From Escherichia phage vb_EcoM_bov11CS3, in the sequence record MT884009.2: DNA of 64,000 nucleotides; one strand, written 5' to 3'. Below are positions 1-26,451 of this stretch, piece after piece. The number at the start of each line of letters is the position of its first letter. Position 1 is the first letter of the stretch. The notes below the pieces were generated by a model. That model ran no database searches. It saw only the letters and a list, made by a program, of their open reading frames with translations, and was not told the origin of the DNA. Both the position numbers and the translations under genes were made by a program.

Positions 1-542
1 GGCGGACGAAATGGGAATACTTCTCATTCTTATAATAATTCTCAAATATCGAGGCAGTGAGGCAAATTAATAGGCCAGGCCGTTCACACAGTGGCACAAC
101 ATTTGCAGCCTATCCTGTGTGGATGAATGAGAATACCTATCATTGTGAGAACTGTTATCATTACGGGCAATTTAACATAATACCCATTATGCGCACCACT
201 GGCGATACATACAGGGGTTGATAACATGAGTTACAGTTTACGCATATAACAATCATATTTCTTACTATTTGTGTGGGATATAGTTAGCAGCCAATAGATT
301 AGATATTGACCTGTGGACTTCCAACCGTCTAGACGTCTAAGCGCCCACACAACAAGGGTTATACATACATCGCTGAATGTAAACAGGGCCGCAAAAATGC
401 TACCATACAAGATTGTAAATTTTTCATGCGGCACTTGACAAAGAGGAGAAAAACTTGTCTGACACACTGGGCATACTCAACACACTGGATACAATAACAA
501 TTGTTACTATTGCATGCCTCACTGTTCACGCATAGATGATAA

Positions 543-821
543 GCCATGCCATTCGTTTGCATGATAACGATTAGCAAGTTAATAATCTTTCGCTGGCTAT
601 GCCAGGTGACTAGGTCACCCCTTCGGGTGTTTCTATGACATAATATAAAAGCAGGGCAACTATTAGAAGATCTATAGTTGCCTTGCTTGTTATGTCATGA
701 TTAACTAAATACAAGGCAACTATGATCTGATTAATAGTTTGCAGACAAACTATCACGGGGGTGATGGTTACTGCTTTTATATTATGTCGCGACTCCGTCG
801 CGCCATGCCATTCGTTTGCAT
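543..821. repeat. Composite palindromic element: 20-bp direct repeats (543-562, 802-821) flanking 18-bp inverted repeats (639-656, 771-788) and two 9-10-9 inverted-repeat sites (655-682, 715-742)
   Basis: Direct repeat gccatgccattcgtttgcat twice; inverted repeat gacataatataaaagcag/ctgcttttatattatgtc; half-site GGCAACTAT in inverted pairs with 10-bp spacers; extra palindrome ggtgactaggtcacc at 606-620. Confidence 0.7.
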
Positions 822-1437
822 AGTTGCCTTATTGTTACAGGTAAAATAATTACATTATTAATTATTTCTTATCTTTCTCTTAGTCATCTAATGATTCCAG
901 TCAGTATAGTAATGCACAGTAAACATTAGACGACTAAAGATTTCTCTGTTTATGATAACTCATCGTGATAATTTCGGACTGTTTACGAAAAATGTTGACA
1001 CCTGAGCTGATTTATGTTATGCAGTTTACACGAATAATTATTTTATGCAGGTATTGACTATTCCGTTATTCTGTGGTTGGAATAAATACTTTGCAGGCTA
1101 TAGAATGGCGTGCGTACGTGAATTCTGAGATCTGGCGGCTATAGTTATACTCGATTTTTCGCGTAGAACACGCTTTCGATGCTGTGTAAGTGTATGACTT
1201 ATAAAGATTTTTAGTTGTTGACAAGATATTGGAGATGTGCATCAGGTTAAAATTTGTGCAATAGCGGCATTACGTGCACTTTTGGGAGAGAAAACGGGTA
1301 AAAATGGACTTGCTACCACACAATGAAAAATTATGCAATAGTTATTTTCCATGTATATTTGTACAGTATGTGGGATTGATGGCTAGTCAATTATTCCACT
1401 TGCCAGGTAGGGCCGTTTATGGTAGGAGAAGAGCAGA

Positions 1438-1462
1438 CAAAAAGAAAGGGGCCTAAGCCCCT
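1438..1462 (-). terminator. Rho-independent terminator (minus-strand sense)
   Basis: Hairpin ggggc-ctaa-gcccc followed on the minus strand by a U-tract; immediately 3-prime of ORF 1482-1901. Confidence 0.6.
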
Positions 1463-1481
1463 TGATAATTCAGTTAAAAAA

Positions 1482-1901
1482 TTATAATGATTCGTATATT
1501 TCAAAAATCCGATTTGCCAGGTCGTTACGGTAGCGGAATTTTTCCTCACGTTTGATCATAAGATCTTTATAGCCGTACTCTTTAAGCACTTCATTAACTT
1601 TATGGCGGCATACTTTCATATTATCCTGCGCGTCACCAATAAATCTGTTGCTATGGTGCATGGCTTTAATTTCTTCTTCCAGGACCAGGGCAACTATGCG
1701 GACCGGATCAAGCTGATAGGCGGTAACATCCATGCGGCATTGTAAACGGCTTTTTACGTCTGCCACCGGATATACTGCAACCTCTTCCCCGTCAACATTG
1801 ACAATAATTAGTTTACCATCGATTTCGAATCCTTTCGCCGCCGGACCGTGACAAAAAGCGTTATCAAAGCTATATGCCGGATTATTAGATTTAATGTTCA
1901 T
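1482..1901 (-). CDS. hypothetical early protein (139 aa)
   Basis: ATG start, SD aagagg upstream, sigma70-like promoter at 1951-1978, terminator downstream. Confidence 0.6.
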   Translation of the reverse strand: MNIKSNNPAYSFDNAFCHGPAAKGFEIDGKLIIVNVDGEEVAVYPVADVKSRLQCRMDVTAYQLDPVRIVALVLEEEIKAMHHSNRFIGDAQDNMKVCRHKVNEVLKEYGYKDLMIKREEKFRYRNDLANRIFEIYESL

Positions 1902-1950
1902 GGTGTTTTTACCTCTTAGTTAATTTTCTTACAACTTCCCTTCAAAAAAG

Positions 1951-1978
1951 AATATAGCAAAACTGCCGATCCTTGTCA
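1951..1978 (-). promoter_or_regulatory. sigma70-like promoter (TTGACA-17-TATATT)
   Basis: Reverse complement of 1951-1978 reads attgacaaggatcggcagttttgctatatt. Confidence 0.6.
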
Positions 1979-2046
1979 ATAAGGATAGCATAATTTTTAT
2001 GTGATCAAGGGGCTTTATTGCCCCCCTGATCGTGCAACTTGTTGTA

Positions 2047-2310
2047 TTATTTGTTACTCATCCAGTTTTCCCAAGCTGCCTGATAATCTGCTTCACTGCG
2101 GCGGATCTCTTCTTGCTCTTCAAGTCGGATCTCTTCTTCCAGGTACCCCAGGATATCGGCTTTTTTGGTCTGGCGTAACATCCAATCATCTTTTTTACGG
2201 GTAAAGATCTTATATGCTTTCTCGCAAACCTCTTTTTTGCTACCTTTTTGGACTTCAAGAACTTTGTAGGCCATGTACTGAACTAGTTTGAGCTGATCAA
2301 GACGTTTCAT
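2047..2310 (-). CDS. hypothetical protein (87 aa)
   Basis: ATG start with SD; same strand as neighbours. Confidence 0.55.
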   Translation of the reverse strand: MKRLDQLKLVQYMAYKVLEVQKGSKKEVCEKAYKIFTRKKDDWMLRQTKKADILGYLEEEIRLEEQEEIRRSEADYQAAWENWMSNK

Positions 2311-2370
2311 GATGTTTACCTCTTTATGCGGTTCTGATTAGTGGGCCTTTTGGCCCGTGTCATTATCTTA

Positions 2371-2643
2371 TTACTTATGGCGGCAGAATTCAAGCGTTTT
2401 TAATTGATAATCTTCCTCAGCCTGGAGTACGACCGCCTCGATCATTTCGTTGGCATTGTTAAAGCCATAACCTTTAGCGAAATCATCCGCGCCACCTTCG
2501 TGATCATGTTCTGCGTTCATCGCTTCCACAAAATGGAATTCAAGATTATTGAGGTAAGGGCTTGATGTTCCGTCCTCTTTTTCGATGAGATCCCAAATAG
2601 CATTAAAACGTGATTCGACTTCTTGATTAATCCAGCTTGACAT
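2371..2643 (-). CDS. hypothetical acidic protein (90 aa)
   Basis: ATG start; GC hairpin in 5-prime leader. Confidence 0.55.
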   Translation of the reverse strand: MSSWINQEVESRFNAIWDLIEKEDGTSSPYLNNLEFHFVEAMNAEHDHEGGADDFAKGYGFNNANEMIEAVVLQAEEDYQLKTLEFCRHK

Positions 2644-2853
2644 GATGTTTTCCTCTCTTCTGGTTGTTGTGTGGGCACTTTTGCCCCTTCAAGATAATGT
2701 TACCCCACCCCATGGCAGATGTCAACGGTTTTTATAGTTCTTATATGACAGGCAGGCCCGGTGATTGTCTCCACCCGTCGCCAGGTGCCTGCCGTGTAAT
2801 AAGTATAACAAAAAACAGGACCATAGCAAGCCCTGTTTTGTAGTTTATAAATA

Positions 2854-3045
2854 TTATATTTTTTCGCCTATGTAGTCCGGTCGGTTTTTCTCTGTCATGC
2901 GCTTTAGCAATTCTTGCATGTTACTTATGGCTTGTAGCGTATCCTCTTCCAGACTTGAATCAACATAATCAGGATCGTCTATAACCTTTCTATGATTATG
3001 ATAACGCAGTACCGCCAATACCTTTCTAACTTGTTCGATATTCAT
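2854..3045 (-). CDS. hypothetical protein (63 aa)
   Basis: ATG start; track ORF. Confidence 0.5.
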   Translation of the reverse strand: MNIEQVRKVLAVLRYHNHRKVIDDPDYVDSSLEEDTLQAISNMQELLKRMTEKNRPDYIGEKI

Positions 3046-3057
3046 TTTTATCGCTCT

Positions 3058-3192
3058 TTAAAACAAGGTGCCAACCGTTTCCAATAGATCACTGACTACA
3101 AGGACAATACTGATCAGCACATATCTAACCATAAGGGGGAAGAGCGCCAGCGATCCCGCCACAATCCCCAAGGTGATAATTATCTTTCTCAT
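3058..3192 (-). CDS. small hydrophobic peptide (44 aa), not in ORF track
   Basis: ATG 2 nt after the stop of upstream gene; predicted transmembrane peptide MRKIIITLGIVAGSLALFPL... Confidence 0.3.
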   Translation of the reverse strand: MRKIIITLGIVAGSLALFPLMVRYVLISIVLVVSDLLETVGTLF

Positions 3193-3194
3193 GG

Positions 3195-3479
3195 TTAACG
3201 GTTCACGTAAGTTTTCCCGTTTACGGTGATGGGCAGATCCTCCAGGTCTGGATCTTCCTTAAGGTCGCGAGCAAGTTCACCGCACCGGACACCCTCGAAT
3301 CCGTAGTACTCTGTTGTACCGTCATTAAAAGTTTTAGCGGCAAGGCATAAGCGATAAGTAACCCCGATTTGATTGACGGCATGAATATCCGTTAGATTAA
3401 CCTCTTTTGCCAGCTCTTTAGCCATTACAGGCGCATTAAGTCCAACAACCAGGGCAACCACTGCGATCATCTTTTTCAT
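3195..3479 (-). CDS. small secreted protein with N-terminal signal peptide (94 aa)
   Basis: N-terminus MKKMIAVVALVVGLNAPVMA resembles a Sec signal peptide. Confidence 0.55.
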   Translation of the reverse strand: MKKMIAVVALVVGLNAPVMAKELAKEVNLTDIHAVNQIGVTYRLCLAAKTFNDGTTEYYGFEGVRCGELARDLKEDPDLEDLPITVNGKTYVNR

Positions 3480-3567
3480 TGTGTCTATCCTCTTTCTGCT
3501 ACGTTTAAGGCGGCAACCGCCTGTTTATGCTTTGTTGGTTAATTTTCGGGTATCGGTATAAATTAAA

Positions 3568-3783
3568 CTATGCTGTACGCTCAACTATAACAACGGCTTG
3601 AGGGATCTCACCTTCCACCACTATCAAGGCTTTTTTCTGCGTAATGGATATCTTTACCCGCTTCAGCGTGGCGGTAAAGTCTTTCATTTCGTCGCGTGGT
3701 GTTTTAGTGCAATGCCAGATCTCAGGCTTACCTATTTGCAAGCCGCGTAAAAATTCTGTTTTGCCTGTTTTGTTAGTGATCAT
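3568..3783 (-). CDS. hypothetical protein (71 aa)
   Basis: ATG start; track ORF. Confidence 0.5.
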   Translation of the reverse strand: MITNKTGKTEFLRGLQIGKPEIWHCTKTPRDEMKDFTATLKRVKISITQKKALIVVEGEIPQAVVIVERTA

Positions 3784-3792
3784 TTGCCAACC

Positions 3793-3897
3793 TCACCTGA
3801 TACCGTTGGAAGACAAGATCACATTAGCCATGGTTGCAATCAGGCCAATACCCAGGGCAATAACCAGGATCACCGCATCAATTAATTTCTGTTTCAT
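3793..3897 (-). CDS. small hydrophobic peptide (34 aa), not in ORF track
   Basis: ATG preceded by SD aagagg; sequence MKQKLIDAVILVIALGIGLIATMANVILSSNGIR. Confidence 0.3.
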   Translation of the reverse strand: MKQKLIDAVILVIALGIGLIATMANVILSSNGIR

Positions 3898-3987
3898 TTT
3901 GTTTTCCTCTTCTTGTTCCAGGTGGCGGACCATTCCACCGCCTTATGTATTATGCTTTGTAAGATGGTTGTTTGTTTTCAAACTATT

Positions 3988-4167
3988 TTAACGATAATCA
4001 TCGTACGCTTTATTAACCTGGCGAATATAACATTCAAAAGCCAGATCAATAGATTTATATTCACGGATATACTCACCATAGGAAACCGCATACATTTCTA
4101 TAGCTTCCTCATATGCGAGGAGAATAGAATCCAAGCCTACGATCTCAGTCTTTGCAATAATAGCCAT
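3988..4167 (-). CDS. small protein (59 aa), not in ORF track
   Basis: ATG with SD aagagg; promoter-like TTGACA-16-TAGTAT at 4215-4242. Confidence 0.35.
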   Translation of the reverse strand: MAIIAKTEIVGLDSILLAYEEAIEMYAVSYGEYIREYKSIDLAFECYIRQVNKAYDDYR

Positions 4168-4214
4168 GATTTTTATCCTCTTTGTGGTTGGTGGGGCTTG
4201 CCCCTTTGATTTAT

Positions 4215-4242
4215 ATACTACAGTCTTATATGGTCATGTCAA
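4215..4242 (-). promoter_or_regulatory. sigma70-like promoter (TTGACA-16-TAGTAT)
   Basis: Hexamers read from reverse complement. Confidence 0.45.
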
Positions 4243-4472
4243 CTATTTTCAAAAAATTTTTCTGCTGTAATATTTTTCCCGGTAGGGTTCGCTACTTTCA
4301 AAATTCTATCATGCACCGGACGCCCAAAAGAATAAGCGCCGTACACAGTAAACCAATAATCGCCGTCAGGCTGTACTATTACCGCCGCATATGGTACGCC
4401 TTTTTCGTTTTTGCTGACAAAATAGATCACATTGCCATTAATAGCCTCAGCGCGTTTAATTTGTTCCATCAT
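4239..4472 (-). CDS. hypothetical protein (77 aa)
   Basis: ATG start; track ORF. Confidence 0.5.
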   Translation of the reverse strand: MMEQIKRAEAINGNVIYFVSKNEKGVPYAAVIVQPDGDYWFTVYGAYSFGRPVHDRILKVANPTGKNITAEKFFENS

Positions 4473-4526
4473 GATGATTTACCTCTCTTTATTTTCATAA
4501 TTGGGGCCTTTTCGGCCCCGCCAGGT

Positions 4527-4811
4527 TTATTTATTGATAGCGTGCAGCGGGAAAGGTACGCCAGGTTGATAGATAACTTTTACAACCTCATCAGGGCAAA
4601 AGAAATTGCAGAATTCCCCCTGATAAGCCTCATCCTCTTTCAATTCTTCATCAACATACTCAAAAAAGTAGTCGATGCTTGGATAATCCTGGCCGGGATT
4701 ATAGTCTACCATCGTTAATAACAATTCTTGATCATTCCGTAGGATATGCATACCCGCTTTTAAGTATTTTGCTTCCATTTCCACTACATCGCCAACGGTG
4801 ACAATAGCCAT
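4527..4811 (-). CDS. hypothetical acidic protein (94 aa)
   Basis: ATG start; track ORF. Confidence 0.55.
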   Translation of the reverse strand: MAIVTVGDVVEMEAKYLKAGMHILRNDQELLLTMVDYNPGQDYPSIDYFFEYVDEELKEDEAYQGEFCNFFCPDEVVKVIYQPGVPFPLHAINK

Positions 4812-5037
4812 GATTTTAACTCCTATCTATCCGGTTAATGATTGGGGGGCCGCCCCCACTGACACGTCCTATTATCCATATTGTAGGACTTGATGCAAGT
4901 ACTTCTTTAAAAATTTTTTAAGCGCCTTGGGGCCGCTGTAACGCTAAAATAATAAAGGCCATGCAACCGCATAGCCTTTATGTGATTATATCGCTGCAGG
5001 CCCTGCTAGGGGCCTTATTTTGCATCATTTGCCGGAA

Positions 5038-5337
5038 TTATTCAGAGAAAACATCGTTCACAATGGCTATAACAATGCCGTTCACCTTGTCACGGTCAAC
5101 AATGCACAAATCACCATAGATCATGTGGTAGTCTGGATGATCTTTGACGGAATAGTCGATAAGTGTTTTCTTGTCATCCAGCTTACTAACTTCCATTCTC
5201 ATAACGATATGAGAATCATCAAAGGCATTATTCCGAAAAGTCATAACCTGACCACCAGGGCACCCGGTGATTTCCACCTCCACGCCGTCTACGATCTGAC
5301 CATCAAAGAAATAAAGATTATTAGCCTGGATAAACAT
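5038..5337 (-). CDS. hypothetical protein (about 99 aa; track start 5358 is GTG)
   Basis: Internal ATG with SD aaggag preferred over GTG. Confidence 0.45.
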   Translation of the reverse strand: MFIQANNLYFFDGQIVDGVEVEITGCPGGQVMTFRNNAFDDSHIVMRMEVSKLDDKKTLIDYSVKDHPDYHMIYGDLCIVDRDKVNGIVIAIVNDVFSE

Positions 5338-5381
5338 GATCATTACTCCTTTTTGCACTGATTATTTTAACAGGGTTTAAA

Positions 5382-5425
5382 TTTACTTTATTGATGGCCC
5401 TGGAGTCAAGGCCATCTAAAAATAA
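5382..5425 (-). repeat. 44-bp repeat copy A: promoter-like element with palindrome GATGGCC-N10-GGCCATC
   Basis: Near-identical to copies at 9127-9170 and 9748-9791; minus strand reads TTGACT-N18-TAAATT. Confidence 0.7.
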
Positions 5426-5428
5426 ATT

Positions 5429-5629
5429 TTACAGGCCTACAATCTCTTTAATTCGTTTTACTGCTGCCTCAGCGCCTTGAGGGTAAAAATTATGGTAACC
5501 AATCACGCGAGTGATACTAATCGCCGTTTGATGATCTTCATAATACCCCTTGAATATTTCTTGACCATCAACCAGCACAGCAATTTTTTCTTCTTTTTTG
5601 AAGTTAATAACGCGGATATTGTTGCTCAT
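5429..5629 (-). CDS. hypothetical protein (66 aa)
   Basis: ATG start with SD; hairpin ggggag-tgt-ctcccc in leader. Confidence 0.5.
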   Translation of the reverse strand: MSNNIRVINFKKEEKIAVLVDGQEIFKGYYEDHQTAISITRVIGYHNFYPQGAEAAVKRIKEIVGL

Positions 5630-5730
5630 TTTGTTTCCCCTTCTGGAACTTTGTCTGTGTGGTGGGGAGTGTCTCCCCGTTGATTGTTATTATCCATATT
5701 CAGGACCGGATTGCAACACCCCGGAAGAAA

Positions 5731-5770
5731 AATTTTTTGAAAAAAGTTAGGCCCCCAGGGATCGGGGGCC
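5731..5770 (-). terminator. Rho-independent terminator (minus-strand sense)
   Basis: Hairpin ggcccccagggatcgggggcc followed on the minus strand by a U-rich tract. Confidence 0.55.
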
Positions 5771-5914
5771 GTTATCAGTTACTTACAGAGATAAAATACA
5801 TCCCTACGCCTAACAATATTTCAAGGGCGATGATCTCAAGCCATACCATAACACGGCGCACCTTATCAGCGCATGGCTTATCCTTGGTTGTCATCGTCTC
5901 CCCCTTCCCTCCTG

Positions 5915-6136
5915 TTAGTAGTGACGTGGTTTACAATGGCCCCCAGGAGTCCTATCACCACGCACACCACAAGAAAAATTATCTCCGCTGTTGTTCGATC
6001 CATTGTTATAAAATTCCTCAAGATCAGGCCTGAAAATAAAGCGTTCGTTATTGAATCCGTCACGCCAGGCGGCTGGCTTCAAATCTTCACTAAAGGGATT
6101 AATTAACGTGGCGTTATTTAAACGGCTGGTCCACAT
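5915..6136 (-). CDS. hypothetical protein (about 73 aa; alternative overlapping frame 5878-6063 exists)
   Basis: ATG with SD gagagga; the track start is TTG. Confidence 0.3.
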   Translation of the reverse strand: MWTSRLNNATLINPFSEDLKPAAWRDGFNNERFIFRPDLEEFYNNGSNNSGDNFSCGVRGDRTPGGHCKPRHY

Positions 6137-6486
6137 ATTTTCTATTCCTCTCAAATAGGCGATCCGCCTCAGTTAAACATATCTCATGGGCTTGGTCTCT
6201 GGTTTTAGCCTCATCAAAAACCTGTTGTGCCAGGCTGCAGCGTAGGGAGACTGGAAGATCACTATAATAGGCGTTGACAAACGTTTGTGCGTCATACAGG
6301 TCGGAAAACACTTTACCCTTTCTATTATCGCCCTTGTCAACAATTGCAAGGATAACCAATACAATAGTTGCAACCACTCCCAGGAAAATAGATATAACAA
6401 ACCATAGAAAAGCGGATCTACCTATCTTGCCAGCGATCCAGGCGTTGAACAAGGCAACTACTACAGCCAAAATAATAAATTCCATT
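6114..6486 (-). CDS. small membrane protein (about 123 aa, two predicted TM segments)
   Basis: Internal ATG with SD agagg chosen; the track start 6620 overlaps the upstream gene by 70 nt. Confidence 0.5.
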
Positions 6487-6549
6487 CTATGTACCTCTTT
6501 TGCAGTTCTGTTTAACAATAAGGCGGCAAATATGCCGCCTGTTACCTGA

Positions 6550-6930
6550 TTAAAAATTATCGCCGTAAATCTTTCCGCTTTCTGCCCACACCACCACGCG
6601 GGGCATGTTATCCCATACATCTTGTTTCAGATTTAACGCGTGCAATTCTTCGGTGGTGCTCATACCAGGCACGGGCTGATTGTATACTGCAAAACGACCA
6701 CCTGCATAATCATAGGCCAGAGTTAAATCACACTGAATCATCTTTTTGATCATGGCGTTAAGCATAGCGTTAGCCGCATACTGGTCACGTTTTAAAGGCA
6801 ACTCTTTGATTAGTTTGCGATAGTTTTCGATATGGTCGCACACTGTTTCACGTGGAAGATCTTTCATATCTTCACGGAATGTAACCAGGTTAAACATAAC
6901 GGTGTCAATAGCTTTAGTAGTGTTTTTCAT
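6550..6930 (-). CDS. hypothetical protein (126 aa)
   Basis: ATG start; promoter 6985-7012 and 8-bp hairpin in leader. Confidence 0.55.
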   Translation of the reverse strand: MKNTTKAIDTVMFNLVTFREDMKDLPRETVCDHIENYRKLIKELPLKRDQYAANAMLNAMIKKMIQCDLTLAYDYAGGRFAVYNQPVPGMSTTEELHALNLKQDVWDNMPRVVVWAESGKIYGDNF

Positions 6931-6984
6931 GATGTTTTCCTCTTTGTTTTGTGTGGGGGCAAACGTCTTGCCCCCTTGAGTTTT

Positions 6985-7012
6985 AATATAGCAGGTTTTT
7001 AGGTTATTGCAA
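6985..7012 (-). promoter_or_regulatory. sigma70-like promoter (TTGCAA-16-TATATT)
   Basis: Hexamers read from reverse complement; followed by hairpin gggggcaa-acgtc-ttgccccc. Confidence 0.5.
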
Positions 7013-7020
7013 CACTTTAT

Positions 7021-7644
7021 TTATGAAAAAGTCATCTCACCATATTCATCGACATCAAACCGCCAATCATTGGCCTCGATAAGGCCGATCAGGTTTTCTG
7101 CGGTGAACTGTTCTAGATAGGCCTCCTCCAGGTCTACGTAAACCTTGCGGGATAGCTCCCGTACCGTCTCGGTGATCAGTTCTTCCAGGTCTTCCACTTT
7201 GTTTTCTTGTTTGGCGGTCAGATCTAGCCAAGTGGTATCAATGTACCCGCTTACAGTGTTTTCATGGCTGTAATGGCTGTACTTGTCGCGTTCAACACTG
7301 GCTGATAACTCGCCATCGTGCATTGTGCCGAACAAGTGACGAATTGATCGGAACTTGGTCAGGGCCTTTACTTTACGCAAAAATTTTTCTAAATCCACGT
7401 TTTCAGCACTGATTGACGCGCCGTCACCCTGGCACCAAAAGCCGGACCAATGTACTTCGGTATCTTCAAGGCCGTACTCTGGAAAGATATATTCTTTGTA
7501 GTGTTCAATTACACTTTCTGCAAAAAAGTCATCCCCGCTGTGTTCTTCTCTTTCGCGTACCATTTCAATGGCTTTTTCTTTTTGTTCGTCGGTCAGCACG
7601 TCGAAAGATAAATTGTAACCTGTGGTAATGTTAACGGTGGTCAT
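7021..7644 (-). CDS. acidic protein of unknown function (207 aa)
   Basis: Strongly acidic composition; ATG start; promoter 7702-7729. Confidence 0.6.
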   Translation of the reverse strand: MTTVNITTGYNLSFDVLTDEQKEKAIEMVREREEHSGDDFFAESVIEHYKEYIFPEYGLEDTEVHWSGFWCQGDGASISAENVDLEKFLRKVKALTKFRSIRHLFGTMHDGELSASVERDKYSHYSHENTVSGYIDTTWLDLTAKQENKVEDLEELITETVRELSRKVYVDLEEAYLEQFTAENLIGLIEANDWRFDVDEYGEMTFS

Positions 7645-7701
7645 GATATTTTCTCCTGTTTTCTTTGTTAGTGGCGGTAAGTTTTCCCGCCTGTGTGTTT
7701 A

Positions 7702-7729
7702 ATTATACTTATTGAGATTTACTTGTCAA
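7702..7729 (-). promoter_or_regulatory. sigma70-like promoter (TTGACA-16-TATAAT)
   Basis: Consensus hexamers read from reverse complement. Confidence 0.6.
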
Positions 7730-7979
7730 CACTATTTTTTAAATTATTGTGGCGCAAAATGTTTAAAATCTCCTCAACGTCATCAACACGGCGGCAATTT
7801 TTAAACGCTACCAATTGCCCCATGATTTTAATCACTGGGCGGCCTTGCCAGTGCCCCTGGAGAAAGCGCGCCTTGACTTTATCGGTGGAACTATCACGCC
7901 ACCAAATGGCCTTGTTGTTGCAGTAGTAAAAATTATTCAGGACAACATCAACTTTATCAAAATTTTTTAATTTACGCAT
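7719..7979 (-). CDS. hypothetical protein (86 aa)
   Basis: ATG start; promoter 8011-8038. Confidence 0.5.
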   Translation of the reverse strand: MRKLKNFDKVDVVLNNFYYCNNKAIWWRDSSTDKVKARFLQGHWQGRPVIKIMGQLVAFKNCRRVDDVEEILNILRHNNLKNSVDK

Positions 7980-8010
7980 GGCGTTTACTCCTTTCTCTCT
8001 TTGATGTGGT

Positions 8011-8038
8011 TAGTATAGCTAACCTGTTTAAGATGTCA
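8011..8038 (-). promoter_or_regulatory. sigma70-like promoter (TTGACA-16-TATACT)
   Basis: Hexamers read from reverse complement. Confidence 0.55.
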
Positions 8039-8183
8039 AGCTTTAAATAAAATCACTGTCAATGATATTTTTAACGCCATAAAACGGCCCTAAGCGATGT
8101 TTTCAGGTTAAAGGGGGGCGATTGCATAGGTGGGGCCTTTTTGGCGCTTACAGGGCCAACCAGGGGCGCTATTCGTAGGATAG

Positions 8184-8212
8184 AAATAAAAAGCCCCGCA
8201 CAATGGCGGGGC
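8184..8212 (-). terminator. Rho-independent terminator (minus-strand sense)
   Basis: Hairpin gccccgc-acaatg-gcggggc followed on the minus strand by a U-tract; 3-prime of gene 8221-8418. Confidence 0.65.
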
Positions 8213-8220
8213 GTTGGTTG

Positions 8221-8418
8221 TTATTTGTCTTTATGGCGGTATCGTTCTGCCTGTCGTTCACGTTCCAAAAGTAGGCCAGGCAATTTACGATCATAATGAT
8301 TTCGCCAGATCTTTCCAAATCTTTTTGGCTTATTCAGTTTATTGTTACGCTGGCGTCGTTCCGGCAGCTCTTCGGAATCATGAGATCGCTTTACAATCTT
8401 CTCAAAATTAATCTTCAT
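8221..8418 (-). CDS. small highly basic protein (about 65 aa; track start 8442 is TTG)
   Basis: ATG with SD aagggggg; Arg/Lys-rich. Confidence 0.45.
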   Translation of the reverse strand: MKINFEKIVKRSHDSEELPERRQRNNKLNKPKRFGKIWRNHYDRKLPGLLLERERQAERYRHKDK

Positions 8419-8779
8419 ATATTCCCCCCTTGCTAACTTCAATATTGGCCTGAATAGCCCGGATACGCCGTTTTATAACCTCCTGATCCTTGCAATCATA
8501 TCCCCAAAAGTCTACGATTTTTGCGCCTCCAGCCTTTAGGCGGTATAGTGTTTCTTGCATCTTGTAGGCCGGGATCGGTCGCGGTGTTACCTGGTCGCCC
8601 TTCTCATTCTTGTACTTAATAATGTAGTCTTCATTGTCGTTGAATATCCAAAATGGGTATTCTGTGAGCGCGTTGCTCTCTTTTTCGTTTTTAGATTGGA
8701 TCTTGTTTACAATTAAAGCCGTAGCAATAGCGCCAATAATAAAACTTGCCCCACTGATCATGTTACTTTCTCCTTTCAT
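8408..8779 (-). CDS. membrane-anchored protein (123 aa)
   Basis: N-terminal hydrophobic segment; ATG start. Confidence 0.55.
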   Translation of the reverse strand: MKGESNMISGASFIIGAIATALIVNKIQSKNEKESNALTEYPFWIFNDNEDYIIKYKNEKGDQVTPRPIPAYKMQETLYRLKAGGAKIVDFWGYDCKDQEVIKRRIRAIQANIEVSKGGIYED

Positions 8780-8837
8780 TGTATTGATAAACTATCTTTA
8801 TAGATGGCCCTGCTACCAGGACCACCGAAAAAACAGT

Positions 8838-9083
8838 TTATTTGACGATACCGACAAAACAGATCCCGCCTTCCCCTATATAGGCAATATCGGTAATTTT
8901 ATAATTTGTCAAGATCCGCGTGTTCAGCTCATTAATAAAATCTGTCATCGCGTTGGTGTAGTTGTCTTCCGTGTCTAAGGCATAATCCCAGGTGTAAACC
9001 TTTTTACGTCCGAAGCCTTTTACCATGATACGGGCGCTTTTGGTGTTGGTAGGGGCATAATATTTGGTGATTAGTGCTGCCAT
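8838..9083 (-). CDS. hypothetical protein (81 aa)
   Basis: ATG start; preceded by 44-bp promoter repeat copy B. Confidence 0.5.
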   Translation of the reverse strand: MAALITKYYAPTNTKSARIMVKGFGRKKVYTWDYALDTEDNYTNAMTDFINELNTRILTNYKITDIAYIGEGGICFVGIVK

Positions 9084-9126
9084 GGTTTTAACTCCTATGC
9101 ATTAGTTCAGTGTTAACAGTATAAAG

Positions 9127-9170
9127 TTTACTTTATTGATGGCCCTGGAGTCAAGGCCATCTAAAAATAA
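9127..9170 (-). repeat. 44-bp repeat copy B: promoter-like element with palindrome
   Basis: Minus strand reads TTGACT-N17-TAAACT; palindrome GATGGCC/GGCCATC flanks the -35 hexamer. Confidence 0.7.
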
Positions 9171-9172
9171 TC

Positions 9173-9514
9173 TTACTCGTTTTCTTCCAGCTCCGCAAGC
9201 TCTTCTTTTGCTTCTTCTAGCTCTGTCTGTAATTCCTGGTATTCTTCATCGTCCTCAATATCCAGGCTGTCGATGTAGTCGCTAAATCCGCAGCGGTAAG
9301 CGATAGGATCTAGCTCCTTGAGGATACGCGACGGAAGAAAAGAAATGTTTCCGATCATGATTTCGCCGTAGATCTCGTCTAACCATTCATCATAGTTTTC
9401 GTCGTACTTGTCCTCGTCGATTTCAAAGGTATCGATCTTGTTCTCAAGGTCTGCGATCTGTTTTTTCAGTGCGGCAACCTGAATAGCTTTTTCTGCGGCG
9501 GTCATAGTAGTCAT
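9173..9514 (-). CDS. acidic coiled-coil protein (113 aa)
   Basis: ATG start; promoter 9566-9593. Confidence 0.55.
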   Translation of the reverse strand: MTTMTAAEKAIQVAALKKQIADLENKIDTFEIDEDKYDENYDEWLDEIYGEIMIGNISFLPSRILKELDPIAYRCGFSDYIDSLDIEDDEEYQELQTELEEAKEELAELEENE

Positions 9515-9565
9515 GGTGTTTTCTCCTTTTGTGTGTTCTGGGAAGTTTTCCCGTTTACGGGTTTA

Positions 9566-9593
9566 AGTATACCGATCTAAGTTAGCTTGTCAA
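9566..9593 (-). promoter_or_regulatory. sigma70-like promoter (TTGACA-16-TATACT)
   Basis: Hexamers read from reverse complement. Confidence 0.55.
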
Positions 9594-9713
9594 TTAAAAA
9601 TTTAAGAAAAATTTTGCAAAACTGTTAGCGCTACTCATTAACATTTGCGCCAGGATGTAACCGACAACGCAGACGATAATAGTTACCTTTGTGTATTGGC
9701 GTGTAGTGCCCAT
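9594..9713 (-). CDS. small hydrophobic peptide (39 aa), not in ORF track
   Basis: ATG with SD aggggg; predicted TM segment. Confidence 0.3.
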   Translation of the reverse strand: MGTTRQYTKVTIIVCVVGYILAQMLMSSANSFAKFFLNF

Positions 9714-9747
9714 CTTAAAGCCCCCTTTTTCGCTTAACTGAGATTAG

Positions 9748-9791
9748 TTTACTTTATTGATGGCCCTGGAGTCAAGGCCATCTAAAAATAA
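9748..9791 (-). repeat. 44-bp repeat copy C: promoter-like element with palindrome
   Basis: Identical to copy B. Confidence 0.7.
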
Positions 9792-9793
9792 AC

Positions 9794-10198
9794 TCAATAA
9801 GTTTTTAGTACTTTCCCGTCCAACCTGTCTAGCTGGATCTCAATGGCTGCAGAAAACCTATTATAAACCACGTCGCCCATGGAATCCAACCAGTCTATGA
9901 CGTTATACACTTGCTCTTTGTTCTTGCAGGTCCGGATCCGTTTCATGATGTAAGCCGGATCAATATTGGTACTCTCGTTGGTGTTCCCCTGTACCTGGTT
10001 TGCCGTATTAGCTACATCTTTAATGGCCTTTACCACCACCTGGAAGGGCTTTAAGGTGCCTTTTGCGTTCATCTCACGCGCTTTTGCGGCGCGGTTGTTA
10101 TAGGTTACACAACGGCGGCAAATGTTCACTAAGTGCATGTCAATAATTTTTTCATCGTTTGCCAGTTCGTTCATGATGCGGCGTACGTTCTTATTCAT
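9794..10198 (-). CDS. hypothetical protein (134 aa)
   Basis: ATG start; promoter 10247-10274. Confidence 0.55.
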   Translation of the reverse strand: MNKNVRRIMNELANDEKIIDMHLVNICRRCVTYNNRAAKAREMNAKGTLKPFQVVVKAIKDVANTANQVQGNTNESTNIDPAYIMKRIRTCKNKEQVYNVIDWLDSMGDVVYNRFSAAIEIQLDRLDGKVLKTY

Positions 10199-10246
10199 GA
10201 TCTTTTTCCTTTGTGCTGGCGGGAAACATTCCCGCCTTTTGTGTCT

Positions 10247-10274
10247 AGTTTACTTAAATTTTGCAGCGTGTCAA
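10247..10274 (-). promoter_or_regulatory. sigma70-like promoter (TTGACA-16-TAAACT)
   Basis: Hexamers read from reverse complement. Confidence 0.5.
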
Positions 10275-10280
10275 TGATTT

Positions 10281-10679
10281 TTATTCGTGGGCGCATGTCA
10301 CAATGTGCTTTTTATAGCCCAGGTGGTCAGCAAGTGCCGACAAAAACTCTTCTTCGTAGATCCAGCCGTCGGCAGTGATCCCCATAGCATTTAATGCACT
10401 CTCAAGTGCTGCGTTAGCTTTATCGTAACCGTGACCGCTCGCCTTGCCGCCAGTATAACCGTACTTATTGTTCTTGTTGTCGTGAATCCAAAACACGCAG
10501 TAGTGAGTGTTACCACTGGCGGCGGCATAATACCGGATCTCAGCTACTTCGTGCAAATTATTGTCATCGTCCAGGCCCACCAGATTATAAGCCTTGTAAA
10601 ATCCACGATCACGGCGGCAGTTCTTGACATCAGAAAAAGAAAAGTCCGCATTATCAAAATTAAAGGTAGTGGTTTTCAT
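10281..10679 (-). CDS. hypothetical protein (132 aa)
   Basis: ATG start; track ORF. Confidence 0.55.
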   Translation of the reverse strand: MKTTTFNFDNADFSFSDVKNCRRDRGFYKAYNLVGLDDDNNLHEVAEIRYYAAASGNTHYCVFWIHDNKNNKYGYTGGKASGHGYDKANAALESALNAMGITADGWIYEEEFLSALADHLGYKKHIVTCAHE

Positions 10680-10742
10680 GATTTTATCCTCTTAGTGTCT
10701 TTTGCGATTTCAGTGTATTTTGTGTCAGACCATATGTCAACA

Positions 10743-10939
10743 TTATTTTTTATTAAACCAGTGGTTGATCTGACCTTTTGTCAGGGCGCAACGGTTAAGC
10801 TGTTGCAGGGTATAGCTATGACCGCGACGAAATTTATAAAGGCCTTGCCCGTTGTTGATGGTTACATCCACCCGGCAAATCACTTGATTGGTGACCACCT
10901 GGCGAGTGTTGCGACGTACTTTAATTCCGTAGGCGTTCA
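10743..10939 (-). CDS. hypothetical small protein (about 65 aa; track extends to 11027)
   Basis: Internal ATG with SD agagg preferred. Confidence 0.4.
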
Positions 10940-11026
10940 TGATTTTTTTATCCTCTCTGTTAATTGGTGTGGTGTTGTTCACCTTGCGAGGATAAGAATA
11001 ACAAGAACTGTCCGAGCTGTCAACCA

Positions 11027-11202
11027 TTAGTTAAAATTATTTTTTGGGTAGAATTCTCCAGCCGCCGCCCCTGCCAGGTTAACCATCATTTTTTCGTACT
11101 CTTCTTTATGTTCCAACGCTCCCGCCATAGCCTTTTCAACCAGGGCGATAGCCTCAGCGTCATTAATAGCTACATTTTCCAGGGGGATCATATTACCTTC
11201 CA
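11027..11202 (-). CDS. small protein (58 aa), not in ORF track
   Basis: ATG with strong SD gaggagg. Confidence 0.35.
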
Positions 11203-11467
11203 TTTTTGTACCTCCTCTTCAATTGTTACCTATCCTATAGCATAGGCCCACCAGGTTTGCAAGCCTTCATTCTCTCCTACCTGGTCAGTTAGGCCCTGCC
11301 AGGCTGGCCCCGCCAGGTTGCAGCGGTCAGCGCATCAGGTTAGAAATTTTTTTTTGAAAAGTGTTGACAGCGGCCCCGCCAGGTGGCAAAATATACCTAT
11401 CGAAAGGACGGCAGGCACCGGTGACGGGGGAGACAACCACCGGGGATGGGCGCTGCATGAAATGAGA

Positions 11468-11484
11468 ACGATTATCATTATCGT
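11468..11484. promoter_or_regulatory. Fur-box-like palindromic operator (imperfect)
   Basis: acgattatcattatcgt resembles the GATAATGATAATCATTATC consensus. Confidence 0.35.
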
Positions 11485-11601
11485 CTAAAAATTTATGCAA
11501 AAACTTCTTGCTTTCTTTGTCCTGTGTGTTACTATAATAACAAGCCGGGGCAGTAGGGGCCGGGAGACAATCACCGGGCCTGCCCGTTATTCTGCAAACG
11601 A

Positions 11602-11616
11602 GAATGATTATCATTC
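11602..11616. promoter_or_regulatory. Fur-box-like perfect palindrome GAATGAT-T-ATCATTC
   Basis: Perfect 7-1-7 inverted repeat; 12 of 13 match to the Fur-box core AATGATAATCATT. Confidence 0.4.
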
Positions 11617-11732
11617 AAAATTCTAAATGAGAACTCCTCGCATTTAATAAATTTAATTAGCACGCTAATTACCCTCCGTAACAATTTCCTATAAAATAGT
11701 ATCCACTAAAATATTCCCATATAGAAATTTTA

Positions 11733-11910
11733 AAAATCCATTTCTGAAAACGAAAAATCGATTTCGTCCCCAAAAATTTCAGGTCGAGAGCCGGAACGAT
11801 TTCCAGAAAATCCGATTCAGAAAACGAAAAACAGATCGAGTACTGAGAAATTTATCGAGAAAAATTTTCAGAAAATTCAATCTTTGAAACGAAAAACAGA
11901 TCGAGTACTT
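11733..11910. repeat. Three degenerate 38-bp direct repeats (iteron-like)
   Basis: Copies at about 11733, 11808 and 11873 share gaaaacgaaaaacagatcgagtact. Confidence 0.6.
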
Positions 11911-12219
11911 GGAAAGCTGCGCCACAACTTCAAGGTAGTGGTCGGATTATTACTATAAAAGGTCAAGGGTAAGTGGGGGAAGTTCTAGTAGAAGGGTGTG
12001 AGCATGTGCGGGAAATCTGTAATGGTGGTCTGGAATATGGTGCAGACGATAGGATGAGTGGTTCATCTCGTCGTGCCTGCTCTGAAAAATCCATTTTAGT
12101 TTTCGATCCATTTTCTGATTTTCTAAGGATTTTAAAATATCCTGGTAGGTAAAATATCAAAAGGAGGAAATCCATTTTAGAAATCCTCCTGATCTCTGGC
12201 AACCTGATAACTTAAAATA

Positions 12220-12552
12220 TCAGGCTCCCAGTGTGTTCTTTCCTTTATACAACCGTAAGGGTATAGTTTTTGTAACAGTCCATCTCCCCAGCCCTTCCCA
12301 GTTCCAGTTGTAGGCATGGTACCCGGTTACGCATGCACTGCTGGAGTGATCATAGGCATAAGAGAACGCTATACGCACCAAATGAAACCAGTCTTTCCAC
12401 GGTTGTGGTCCGTAAGCTTTTCTCCAACACCGACACAAGCTAAATGTCTCAAGAATAGGCAGGATAACAAATCCATACACCGCCACCAGAATAGCCAACG
12501 CAATGATTGTCAGGAATACATACCCTGCAGTTGAAACGATGATCTCTGTCAT
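12220..12552 (-). CDS. membrane protein (110 aa)
   Basis: Hydrophobic N-terminal segment; ATG start. Confidence 0.5.
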   Translation of the reverse strand: MTEIIVSTAGYVFLTIIALAILVAVYGFVILPILETFSLCRCWRKAYGPQPWKDWFHLVRIAFSYAYDHSSSACVTGYHAYNWNWEGLGRWTVTKTIPLRLYKGKNTLGA

Positions 12553-12746
12553 TTGTCGTCCCCTTTCTTACGGATATAGATGTGAGAGCCTGCCTGTATA
12601 TAAATTTCTCGACCATCTTCTGCAAAGATATGAAATACACGATCACCTTCATACTCGATACGTGATATCTTCATAATGGTCTTTCCACCTGGGATGCGGA
12701 TCTCATCCCCCACAGCGATGTTCCATGCAGATTTAAGCTTAAACAT
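12549..12746 (-). CDS. hypothetical protein (about 65 aa; track start is GTG)
   Basis: ATG with SD aaggaggg. Confidence 0.45.
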   Translation of the reverse strand: MFKLKSAWNIAVGDEIRIPGGKTIMKISRIEYEGDRVFHIFAEDGREIYIQAGSHIYIRKKGDDK

Positions 12747-12984
12747 CTGCACCCTCCTTTGGGAGCTCTAACTCTGGCATAGCCATATACGCCACAACAG
12801 GGTTGTAATCAAAGTAGAAATGACCGTTAATTATCCCAGTTTTGTGCACATGGTCACCAGATCCTGCAAGAACAATCTCGCAAGCTCCGAAATCAACCTT
12901 GCCATTCTCATCTGCCATGGCTACAATATACTTTCCTAGAGGCATGTTTTCAACGCCGTCTACAAATGTCCACCCTTTGTTCAT
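12739..12984 (-). CDS. hypothetical protein (81 aa)
   Basis: ATG start; track ORF. Confidence 0.5.
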   Translation of the reverse strand: MNKGWTFVDGVENMPLGKYIVAMADENGKVDFGACEIVLAGSGDHVHKTGIINGHFYFDYNPVVAYMAMPELELPKEGADV

Positions 12985-13004
12985 ACTTTATCTCCTGCAC
13001 TTTC

Positions 13005-19239: not shown

Positions 19240-19270
19240 TGCTGTGGTCCCCTTTCGTTTTGATAGGGCC

Positions 19271-19299
19271 ATTATATTAGGCCCCATCACTGTTGTCAA
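19271..19299 (-). promoter_or_regulatory. Consensus sigma70 promoter (TTGACA-17-TATAAT) with the -10 inside palindrome GGGCC-N9-GGCCC
   Basis: Perfect consensus hexamers read from reverse complement; palindrome at 19266-19284. Confidence 0.6.
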
Positions 19300-19633: not shown

Positions 19634-20005
19634 TCAATGACTATTTTCAATCAGCCACACAGGGTCGAGGTAAATTTGTTGGCGTGTTGCCCAATGACAA
19701 ACTTCATTGTACGTCTGAACCTCTTTGTCTGTCAATTCACGAATAGGCTCATCTATACCCTCATTTTTGTGGTAATCCCAGTCGGCATCGATTTCCCACA
19801 GCCATGACTTGTTGTCACCACGCTTACGCACACAGAAGTCACCAGGACGGCCTGCCAGTGCATTTAAGAACTCGTTCTCTGCTCGCTCCTGAAGAATGCT
19901 AAGGAGCAAAACGTTGGAGCATGACCGTAAAATATGCTTCAGCTCGCAGTCATCAATCTCAACTTCAATACGTTGTTTGACTGTGTGGGTACCTTTTACT
20001 AACAT
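19634..20005 (-). CDS. hypothetical protein (about 123 aa; track start is TTG)
   Basis: ATG with strong SD gaggagg. Confidence 0.5.
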   Translation of the reverse strand: MLVKGTHTVKQRIEVEIDDCELKHILRSCSNVLLLSILQERAENEFLNALAGRPGDFCVRKRGDNKSWLWEIDADWDYHKNEGIDEPIRELTDKEVQTYNEVCHWATRQQIYLDPVWLIENSH

Positions 20006-20015
20006 TCTACCTCCT

Positions 20016-20715: not shown

Positions 20716-20764
20716 AAAAGTCTCCTCTTTGCTCAACAACACTTCCATGTGTTGATAGTTTACA

Positions 20765-23542: not shown

Positions 23543-23600
23543 ATACAGTTCTCCTTAAAGGGGAGGCGGTTGTACTACCCCTCCCACTCTTTGTTAAACA

Positions 23601-26433: not shown

Positions 26434-26451
26434 TTTGCTGTCTCCTAATGC

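Follow-up and report, generated by a model that had tools for sequence, protein, structure and literature searches.

A block of small leftward genes in an rV5-like phage

Here we analyse positions 1438-11250 of a 64,000-nucleotide (nt) stretch of DNA from Escherichia phage vb_EcoM_bov11CS3 (record MT884009.2; the whole stretch is referred to as the window), a region in which small minus-strand genes are preceded by σ70 promoters, short hairpins and Shine-Dalgarno (SD) sequences in a recurring order. The window matches positions 1-64000 of MT884010.2 (Escherichia phage vb_EcoM_bov22_2) at 100% identity and is 94% identical to rV5, and the phage belongs to the rV5-like group, Vequintavirus. The region holds 28 small open reading frames (ORFs) of 34-207 residues (1482..11203, minus strand), composed of 26 annotated coding sequences (CDSs) and two unannotated ORFs with PHROG matches, that correspond to rV5 ORF164-197 and form the distal end of a long leftward transcription unit. 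All 28 match PHROG families, every one of them of unknown function, and the eight largest ORFs of the block contain no Pfam domain. Non-coding sequence accounts for 23% of the region, and an SD, typically of the form AAAGAGGnAAAnCATCATG, precedes 26 of the 28 ORFs. The limits 1438-11250 fit natural borders of the block, a terminator at 1446-1463 and a 1-kb non-coding block at 11204-12219.

A reading of the letters and their ORFs, henceforth the sequence-only reading, had likened this layout to the promoter-early-stem-loop (PeSL) cassettes of T4-like phages. Described from RB49/phi1, PST/T4 and nt-1/KVP40 (Arbiol 2010, PMC2839356; Comeau 2014, PMC4122927), these combine a σ70 promoter behind an A/T-rich tract with a Gn-loop-Cn stem-loop and an SD/ATG. 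We return to this likeness after describing the components.

Near-consensus promoters precede the small genes

We scored sites by their matches (of 12) to TTGACA-N16-18-TATAAT and used 200 dinucleotide shuffles as the null. The minus strand of the region carries 10 sites with a score of at least 10/12 and the plus strand none, against 1.75±1.35 (maximum 7) in the shuffles; at 9/12 or better the counts are 30, 5 and 11.5±3.1, respectively. Nine of the ten stronger sites lie directly upstream of an SD-bearing gene, with the tenth (7960..7932) inside a CDS, and three more gene-upstream promoters are found at 7012 and 5716 (9/12 each) and at 4898 (8/12). The prediction of at least eight near-consensus σ70 promoters before small minus-strand genes is thereby borne out, the number of plain promoters being twelve:

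1951..1979, minus strand: promoter TTGACA-17-TATATT, 11/12, rV5 P164, without a leader hairpin
2697..2725, minus strand: promoter TTGACA-17-TAACAT, 10/12, rV5 P168
4215..4242, minus strand: promoter TTGACA-16-TAGTAT, 10/12
4871..4898, minus strand: weaker promoter TTGCAT-16-GATAAT, with AAAAAATTTTT upstream
5689..5716, minus strand: promoter TTGCAA-16-GATAAT, 9/12, with AAAAAATTTTT upstream
6985..7012, minus strand: promoter TTGCAA-16-(TGc)TATATT, 9/12
7702..7729, minus strand: promoter TTGACA-16-TATAAT, 12/12, its -35 inside the end of the upstream gene
8012..8039, minus strand: promoter TTGACA-16-TATACT, 11/12, rV5 P186, its -10 overlapped by a weak hairpin (8008-8024)
9566..9593, minus strand: promoter TTGACA-16-TATACT, 11/12, rV5 P192, with a strong A/T UP tract
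10247..10274, minus strand: promoter TTGACA-16-TAAACT, 10/12
10712..10740, minus strand: promoter TTGACA-17-TACACT, 10/12, rV5 P195A, without a hairpin
10995..11023, minus strand: promoter TTGACA-17-(TGt)TATTCT, 10/12, rV5 P195B, preceding the likely true start at 10940

Just before the -35 boxes, a stretch of 25 nt has an A+T content of 74%, compared with 58% regionally, and contains UP-like AAAAATTTTT tracts. Within the window, plain promoters extend to 38.7 kb. Six of the promoters in the list (P164, P168, P186, P192, P195A and P195B) are annotated in the rV5 record, and thus part of this observation was already public; the rV5 genome paper (Kropinski 2013) counts 33 promoters and 20 terminators genome-wide and lets these genes close the unit "10-1-238-164" (PMC3606486). 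When we call the genes early, we infer the timing solely from the σ70 consensus.

The last promoter in the list bears on the annotation of CDS 10743-11027, whose start is probably placed too far upstream: the PHROG profile fits residues 44-94, and an ATG with an SD lies at 10940, within the CDS and downstream of P195B.

A hairpin lies at a fixed distance from the -10

Hairpins with a folding energy (ΔG) of -8 or lower number 26 in the region, against 6.7±2.8 in shuffles, and at a ΔG of -6 or lower they are 4.5 times denser in intergenic sequence (10.2 per kb) than in coding sequence (2.25 per kb). Eight of them share one arrangement, type A, in which a GC hairpin of 4-8 base pairs (bp) begins 9-12 nt past the -10 of the promoter and is followed by a CA-rich spacer, a strong SD and the ATG. 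GC hairpins between promoter and ribosome-binding site (RBS), proposed for several leaders by the sequence-only reading, are accordingly present in eight cassettes, here named by their 5' ends (2686, 4204, 4858, 5678, 6975, 7691, 9552 and 10236):

2673..2686, minus strand: leader hairpin GGGCAAAAGTGCCC, 10 nt past the -10, tail ACACAACAAC
4193..4204, minus strand: leader hairpin GGGGCAAGCCCC, 5' end at 4204 in the scan; the gap is 9 nt when it is set at 4205
4843..4858, minus strand: leader hairpin TGGGGGCGGCCCCCCA, 12 nt past the -10
5664..5678, minus strand: leader hairpin GGGGAGACACTCCCC, 10 nt past the -10
6955..6975, minus strand: leader hairpin GGGGGCAAGACGTTTGCCCCC, 9 nt past the -10, with compensatory variants among relatives
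7673..7691, minus strand: leader hairpin GGCGGGAAAACTTACCGCC, 10 nt past the -10
9540..9552, minus strand: weak leader hairpin GGGAAAACTTCCC, about 12-13 nt past the -10, kept in 10/10 phages
10218..10236, minus strand: leader hairpin GGCGGGAATGTTTCCCGCC, 10 nt past the -10

While the gap between -10 and hairpin is fixed at 9-12 nt, the ATG stands anywhere from 19 to 34 nt beyond these eight hairpins, or up to 35 nt by one tabulation. The eight tails have 0-3 T in the 8 nt past the stem, that is, no U-tract. A strict composite scan (promoter, hairpin 7-13 nt past the -10, SD-ATG) returned six cassettes in the region, compared with 0.02 per shuffle; elsewhere it found one more on the window (29103) and none on the plus strand of the whole window. 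These counts show that the modular order of promoter, hairpin, SD and small gene, as the sequence-only reading had it, is real and concentrated in 1438-11250.

Folding of the eight leaders predicts a 5' hairpin followed by an SD that is mostly unpaired in seven of them, with a probability of being unpaired of 0.59-0.99; the exception is the leader of gene 4527, where it is 0.16. If transcription is assumed to start (+1) 7 nt past the -10, the predicted start leaves 3-7 unpaired 5' nt, mostly 4, before the stem.

Five further hairpins, type B, have a like position before an ATG and no convincing promoter:

2343..2356, minus strand: hairpin GGGCCAAAAGGCCC, no strong promoter, ATG 32 nt downstream; the leader that follows is the repeat flanking rV5 ORF166
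3508..3522, minus strand: promoter-less hairpin AGGCGGTTGCCGCCT, ATG 28 nt downstream; stem kept, with indels in the loop
3920..3943, minus strand: hairpin AGGCGGTGGAATGGTCCGCCACCT; the likely true ATG, at 3897, is 22 nt downstream
4503..4519, minus strand: promoter-less hairpin GGGGCCGAAAAGGCCCC, ATG 30 nt downstream
6521..6540, minus strand: hairpin AGGCGGCATATTTGCCGCCT without a promoter, tail TATTGTTA, perhaps a weak terminator

The third of these overlaps CDS 3793-3933, another gene whose annotated start is probably too far upstream, the PHROG profile fitting a 34-residue product from 3897. In both this CDS and CDS 10743-11027 the surplus "coding" 5' part is probably hairpin or promoter sequence. 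A related trace is found at 3201-3226, at the 3' end of CDS 3195-3479, which is an 88% copy of the leader hairpin sequence at 9535-9560 (CCGTAAACGGGAAAACTT...) and seems to be a former leader taken into coding sequence. Outside the region, the site at 29047-29103 combines a promoter with leader hairpin GGGGAGGCCTCCTCCCC before a methyltransferase gene, and the TATAAT of a 12/12 promoter is located in the loop of a hairpin of 10 bp at 19289-19261 (within 19261-19299).

Promoters and stems are conserved among relatives

We compared ten rV5-like phages, the window phage and nine relatives. Variable alignment columns make up 9.3% of stems, 35% of loops and 19.8% of other intergenic sequence (Fisher p = 7e-9 and 2e-6), and they are found in 6/132 columns of promoter hexamers versus 46/179 columns of spacers (p = 2e-7). 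This pattern in the alignments shows purifying selection on both promoters and hairpins. The fold can be kept when the sequence changes: at 6975 the stem reads GGCGGGC..GCCCGCC in SYGMH1 and is in another register in B9-1 and naam; at the 4858 site B9-1 has a hairpin of different sequence and equal stability; and at 3522 and 4204 there are indels in the loops. Among 22 informative hairpins, 17 are more stable as sense than as antisense RNA, by virtue of G·U pairs (p = 0.012). We also considered as a strand marker the polarity in which the G-run comes first, and rejected it, since a Gn-loop-Cn palindrome is identical on both strands.

The leader hairpin as a proposed 5'-terminal stem-loop

From the position, fold and conservation of these elements we infer that the leader hairpin serves each early mRNA as a stabilising and insulating 5'-terminal stem-loop, a reading to which we give a probability of roughly 0.55. 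Host RNA polymerase would read the region as the promoter-distal, gene-variable end of a long leftward unit made of more than 20 cassettes, each with an optional UP tract and σ70 promoter, a Gn-loop-Cn hairpin, a CA-rich spacer with SD and ATG, and a small ORF. Transcription would start about 7 nt past each -10, and the hairpin would then form the extreme 5' end of the mRNA, with some 3-7 unpaired nt ahead of it. There it would slow 5'-end-dependent decay by RppH and RNase E, in the way that 5'-terminal stem-loops are reported to stabilise the ompA and papA mRNAs of E. coli (Emory 1992; Bouvet & Belasco 1992; Bricker & Belasco 1999, as cited in PMC3997798), and it would insulate the open RBS from upstream sequence, so that a cassette would be expressed alike wherever it is inserted. 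In read-through transcripts, leader and promoter-less hairpins may serve as barriers to 3' exonucleases and as protected 5' ends after processing, and four long hairpins described below (D1) are possible RNase III sites that also hold a weak promoter. As DNA, the motifs common to the cassettes could offer short homologies for the gain and loss of cassettes, as has been proposed for PeSLs.

The leaders resemble the 5' untranslated regions of ompA and papA and the T7 φ10 leader in that a hairpin of no set sequence stands a few nt from the predicted 5' end and is followed by an unstructured RBS. They differ from them in that the hairpin is repeated before many short genes in a movable cassette, and in that their 5' ends are predicted.

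Several points speak against the stabilising role. The short leader hairpins are wholly Watson-Crick paired and so show no strand bias that would separate an RNA from a DNA role, and five hairpins have no convincing promoter. A search of the literature for transcriptomes or transcription start sites of Vequintavirus, Vequintavirinae and phAPEC8 gave none, and the +1 and the "5'-terminal" status are predictions. In RB49, the PeSL211/210 stem-loop, which has no obvious U-tract, cut downstream lacZ expression to the same degree as rrnB T1 (Arbiol; PMC2839356); judged by sequence, some probability is therefore left for an attenuator role. As to mobility, all indels among the nine relatives compared are confined to 1458-5030, and intergenic indel boundaries are expected anyway from selection against broken genes.

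Terminators in the region and the case for termination

Five hairpins of the region do bear T-runs (1463, 2839, 4981, 5770 and 8212), and they are listed here with two other stem-loops:

1446..1463, minus strand: terminator AAGGGGCTTAGGCCCCTT then TCTTTTTG, ending the unit; its 3' arm is a crossover partner in the Alma deletion
2003..2031, minus strand: stem-loop of 10 bp upstream of the 1979 promoter; Alma crossover, deletion of gene 1482-1901
2743..2790, minus strand: long imperfect hairpin with a GGAGACAATCACC core, z = -2.6, part of it the inverted repeat of 11563-11590
2802..2839, minus strand: terminator and promoter composite, an 11-bp hairpin and T-run with TTGCTA (-35) in the loop, then TG-TATACT
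4952..4981, minus strand: terminator, 13-bp stem then TATTTT
5750..5770, minus strand: terminator GGCCCCCGATCCCTGGGGGCC then TAACTTTTTT
8193..8212, minus strand: terminator GCCCCGCCATTGTGCGGGGC then TTTTTATTT

The hairpin at 2802-2839 is 6 kcal/mol more stable on the sense strand through G·U pairs. These T-run elements invite the explanation that the cassette hairpins, too, are terminators or attenuators that limit read-through from upstream cassettes, a function proposed for PeSL stem-loops. The Alma record labels homologous hairpins as terminators, a Vequintavirus survey counts 37-48 terminators per genome (PMC10698182), and the strong reduction of lacZ read-through by the RB49 stem-loop (PMC2839356) counts in the same direction, RB49 stem-loops also having no long U-tracts. 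Against this, just 0-3 T are found in the 8 nt that follow each of the eight leader stems, with CA-rich sequence beyond, an efficient terminator 9-12 nt past its own -10 would abort the cassette's own transcripts, and it is the distance to the -10 (9-12 nt) that is held, not that to the ATG (19-35 nt). With no U-tract behind them and their own promoter ahead of them, the leader hairpins are unlikely terminators, and we rejected termination as their main function.

The D1 repeat and the case for RNA processing

A 49-nt repeat, D1, occurs four times in the region and folds into a hairpin of 20-23 bp with a 10-bp GC upper stem, an internal loop and an AU lower stem. Three copies carry TTGACT-18-TAAAYT, and D1 together with the 2802-2839 element forms a class of hairpins that overlap the -35:

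5380..5428, minus strand: D1 copy 1, TTGACT-18-TAAATT, z = -4.4
8790..8838, minus strand: D1 copy 2, diverged (65% identity), without TTGAC, both stems pairing via different sequence, z = -7.1
9125..9173, minus strand: D1 copy 3, TTGACT-18-TAAACT inside the hairpin, z = -5.2
9746..9794, minus strand: D1 copy 4, z = -5.9

Otherwise, the direct repeats of the region are SD-leader repeats of 19-31 nt. In the three intact D1 copies all changes fall in the last two loop bases and TTGAC is invariant, a pattern that suggests selection on the stem and the -35 alike.

D1 is like the RNase III sites of the T7 early region in being a hairpin of 20-23 bp with an internal loop that lies between short cistrons; it is unlike them in that there are just four such elements, which also bear promoter-like hexamers. 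If the likeness is extended to all hairpins of the region, they would be RNase III sites, or RNase E entry or barrier sites, at which a polycistronic transcript is cut into stable monocistronic mRNAs as in T7. The length, internal loop and z scores (-4.4 to -7.1) of the D1 hairpins favour this, as does the diverged copy that retains both stems despite its sequence change, and the promoter-less hairpins do lie between cistrons. RNase III, however, needs about 20 bp. The 13 short hairpins have just 4-8 bp, and we rejected RNase III action on them on these grounds. In addition, most short hairpins have a conserved promoter of their own, so that processing is not needed for a monocistronic mRNA, and the invariance of TTGAC beside two freely varying loop bases points to selection on a promoter as well. 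We therefore consider processing distinctly improbable as the general explanation, with the D1 hairpins alone being plausible RNase III substrates from their predicted structure, and prefer a stabilising 5' stem-loop for the short leader hairpins.

Cassettes are gained and lost as whole genes

We mapped indels of at least 25 nt among the ten phages by chained BLAST and MAFFT alignment. Comparing cassette content among relatives, which the sequence-only reading had named as a check, revealed whole-gene indels with junctions in leader/SD sequence or stem-loops. There are about eight indel or replacement events, and all boundaries are intergenic or within 3 nt of a CDS end. The junction overlaps of 18-36 nt, located in leader/SD sequence or stem-loop arms, are a more specific sign of recombination between cassette motifs than the boundaries are, as judged from the alignments. 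In rV5 and EduardKellenberger, the extra ORF166 is flanked on both sides by one leader, ACTAATCAnAAC..CACAnAAAGAG. In SophiaRose, A6-1 and naam, a 291-nt insert (ORF, hairpin and leader) lies between copies of a repeated leader/SD sequence. Alma is without gene 1482-1901 and its promoter, the crossover having fallen inside two similar stem-loops, 2031-2003 and 1463-1446. SYGMH1 lost gene 1482-1901 in a separate event and lost gene 3195-3479 exactly from ATG to ATG. Also in this part of the region, the sequence at 5023-5037 (ATGATGCAAAATAA) looks like the scar of a deleted gene of about 116 residues, which stands at this place in SophiaRose, A6-1, Alma and EduardKellenberger.

Such events raise the question of whether the hairpins act mainly as DNA, the GC palindromes and leader motifs being recombination hot spots that would give rise to mini-circles as in PeSLs, with any effect on RNA incidental. 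The Alma crossover within two similar stem-loops fits this explanation, as do the other crossovers in repeated leaders (rV5 ORF166 and the SophiaRose insert) and the presence of an endonuclease VII gene in the phage (15761-16339). The different placement of the hairpin, in the promoter spacer in Cronobacter phage CR3 and RB49 (see below) and in the leader here, would likewise suit a role independent of position. Yet the longer hairpins, owing to their G·U pairs, have a far greater stability in the sense RNA than in its complement, the tight spacing of 9-12 nt from the -10 is left unexplained, and among the ten phages there are zero indels in 5030-11250, although cassettes are dense there. We consider action chiefly as DNA highly improbable, and a stem-loop at the mRNA 5' end remains the reading we favour.

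A leader-hairpin build distinct from canonical PeSLs

The place of the stem-loop in PeSLs depends on the phage: PST has it upstream of the promoter, and in RB49/phi1 it is mostly found within the -35/-10 spacer or overlapping the -10. PeSL elements are repeated, occupy hyperplastic regions, stand at indel junctions and form mini-circles (PMC2839356, PMC4122927). To set the region beside such systems we used RB49 and CR3 sequences taken by accession. RB49 was not among the matches listed in a tblastn search with ORF 2371-2643, and a tblastn search with the macro-domain protein matched 2733 records, too many to guide the choice of distant relatives. One scan of the sense strand, the same for all loci, counted hairpins inside the -35..-10 interval and leader hairpins 7-13 nt past the -10:

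Window 1438-11250: inside -35..-10, 0 of 30 promoter-like sites; leader hairpin, 7
Phapecoctavirus vB_EcoM_REC, 12.2 kb: inside -35..-10, 0; leader hairpin, 12
Cronobacter phage CR3 (Certrevirus, Vequintavirinae): inside -35..-10, 17; leader hairpin, 4
RB49: inside -35..-10, 6; leader hairpin, 3

Partial exceptions in the region are D1 and 2839-2812, which overlap the -35, and 8008-8024, which overlaps the -10. In RB49, the elements of ORF185-211 read AAAAAGTTGTTGACA-GGGGATCnnnGATCCCC-TATAAT..., are near-identical over about 70 nt and have a spacer hairpin without long U-tracts. The small-gene block at 20000-32400 of CR3 has the RB49 build, TTGACnGGGGCC..GGCCCCATAAT, with a GGGGCC..GGCCCC spacer hairpin at 17 sites; thus, PeSL-like cassettes occur outside T4-like phages. 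By contrast with this spacer build, vB_EcoM_REC has 7-12 cassettes of promoter and leader hairpin in 12 kb, with gaps of 8-11 nt, and about 20 of its intergenic regions read promoter-GTATCACATAG-GGCGGCAATGGTGCCGCC-CA-rich-SD; cassettes whose leader hairpin has the form CAYRTAG-GGCGG..CCGCC number about 12-20 in this phage. The cassette sets of CR3 and vB_EcoM_REC seem not to have been described before.

The likeness to PeSLs drawn by the sequence-only reading therefore holds in part. The region shares with PeSLs the A/T tract, the near-consensus σ70 promoter, the Gn-loop-Cn hairpin, a CA-rich leader, the SD and the ATG; its cassettes flank small ORFs of unknown function, and six of the seven composite cassettes of the 64-kb window are found there; and rV5-like relatives differ by single-ORF indels with crossovers in the element, once inside the stem-loop. 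The likeness fails in the place of the hairpin and in the repeat: the window phage is not T4-like, the stem-loop stands in the transcribed leader downstream of the -10 and not in the spacer, over the -10 (RB49) or upstream of the promoter (PST), and the cassettes resemble each other at the level of motifs, D1 and the SD leader excepted, unlike the near-identical repeats of about 70-100 bp in PeSLs. By hairpin position and repeat conservation, as read from these alignments and scans, the region is not in the canonical PeSL class and is a distinct leader-hairpin build. The papers on rV5 and on the Certrevirus phages CB7/CR3 also describe clusters of σ70 promoters that mark blocks of short early genes, the same promoters in the case of rV5 (PMC3606486, PMC7344957). 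They differ from the present description in listing promoters and terminators apart, without a fixed promoter-hairpin-SD order or cassette shuffling (PMC3606486, PMC7344957); the term "stem-loop" appears once in the rV5 paper, in a figure legend (PMC3606486), and nowhere in the CB7 paper (PMC7344957).

The recurrence of one hairpin form in other phages suggests a different function, in which leader hairpins are recognised by a protein (as in boxB-like antitermination, translational repression or shielding from a host defence that targets RNA) and the early genes are co-controlled. A GGCGG..CCGCC hairpin after CAYRTAG occurs 10 times in vB_EcoM_REC and four times in CR3, hairpins of the GGCGG type number five in the window, and one window hairpin has the loop GAAAA, as λ boxB does. 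On the other hand, window hairpins vary in stem, loop and length, with loops the most variable part, which argues against sequence-specific recognition; a scan of the window for the CAYRTAGSGS motif found none; the "anti-termination" gene has no Pfam support; and Rfam offers no family match, the sole hit over 1-13000 at E ≤ 1 being a chance match to Clostridium-PBP, its 33 bits falling short of the gathering score, 94. For the window hairpins such recognition is barely credible. The gene in question (38747-39724) has a homolog that other records call an anti-sigma factor, and the rV5 paper terms gp11 Srd-like (PMC3606486). A wider version is speculative and, to our minds, improbable: PeSL-type cassettes would be shared and exchanged among unrelated large enterobacterial myoviruses (Vequintavirinae, Stephanstirmvirinae and Krischvirus) in two interchangeable builds, with the hairpin in spacer or leader, and the leader build, which recurs as CAYRTAG-GGCGG..CCGCC in Phapecoctavirus and Certrevirus, would serve not just as a passive stabiliser but for specific recognition, through which early mRNAs would be co-regulated or protected.

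On this view of the region, the range of movable units of promoter, stem-loop and RBS with accessory genes would no longer end with T4-like phages but would take in the rV5 and phAPEC8 groups, both in wide use for phage therapy and biocontrol. The spacer hairpin of CR3 and RB49 and the leader hairpin of Vequintavirus and Phapecoctavirus would make a natural comparison that could decide between action as RNA (terminator or stabiliser) and as DNA (recombination site). Annotation is affected too: such hairpins routinely appear in records as rho-independent terminators, and regulatory elements of the region enclose several of the annotated start codons; for engineering, the cassettes would be ready-made insulated expression units for E. 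coli. The relevance thus lies mainly in phage genome evolution, annotation practice and a natural test of how PeSL stem-loops act.

Other features of the window

The two unannotated ORFs of the block, 3058-3192 (44 residues) and 9594-9713 (39 residues), match PHROG families end to end and are annotated in rV5 and other relatives. The 1-kb non-coding block at 11204-12219 contains three direct repeats of about 57 nt (11720-11915); AAAATGGATTT words recur in it, and two imperfect hairpins are built round a GGAGACAATCACC core. The block may act in cis, for example as an origin, and is perhaps the non-coding box drawn in the map of the rV5 genome. Positions 2745-2772 and 11563-11590, 8.8 kb from each other, form an inverted repeat of 28 nt with 93% complementarity, which brackets most of the cassettes; each arm sits in a long imperfect hairpin, without an Rfam match. 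On the other side of the block, window positions 1-1438 have no annotated CDS and no transfer RNA (tRNA) and contain short inverted and direct repeats (637-654/771-788, 706-724/819-837 and 543-562/802-821); relatives have about 2.5 kb of unannotated DNA between convergent units at this place. A tRNA scan of the window found zero genes, and Tandem Repeats Finder returned nothing relevant. Finally, 23 GenBank records named "Campylobacter phage" (MG0656xx) are about 95% identical to the window phage over 10-20 kb, which suggests that they are mislabelled or contaminating rV5-like genomes.

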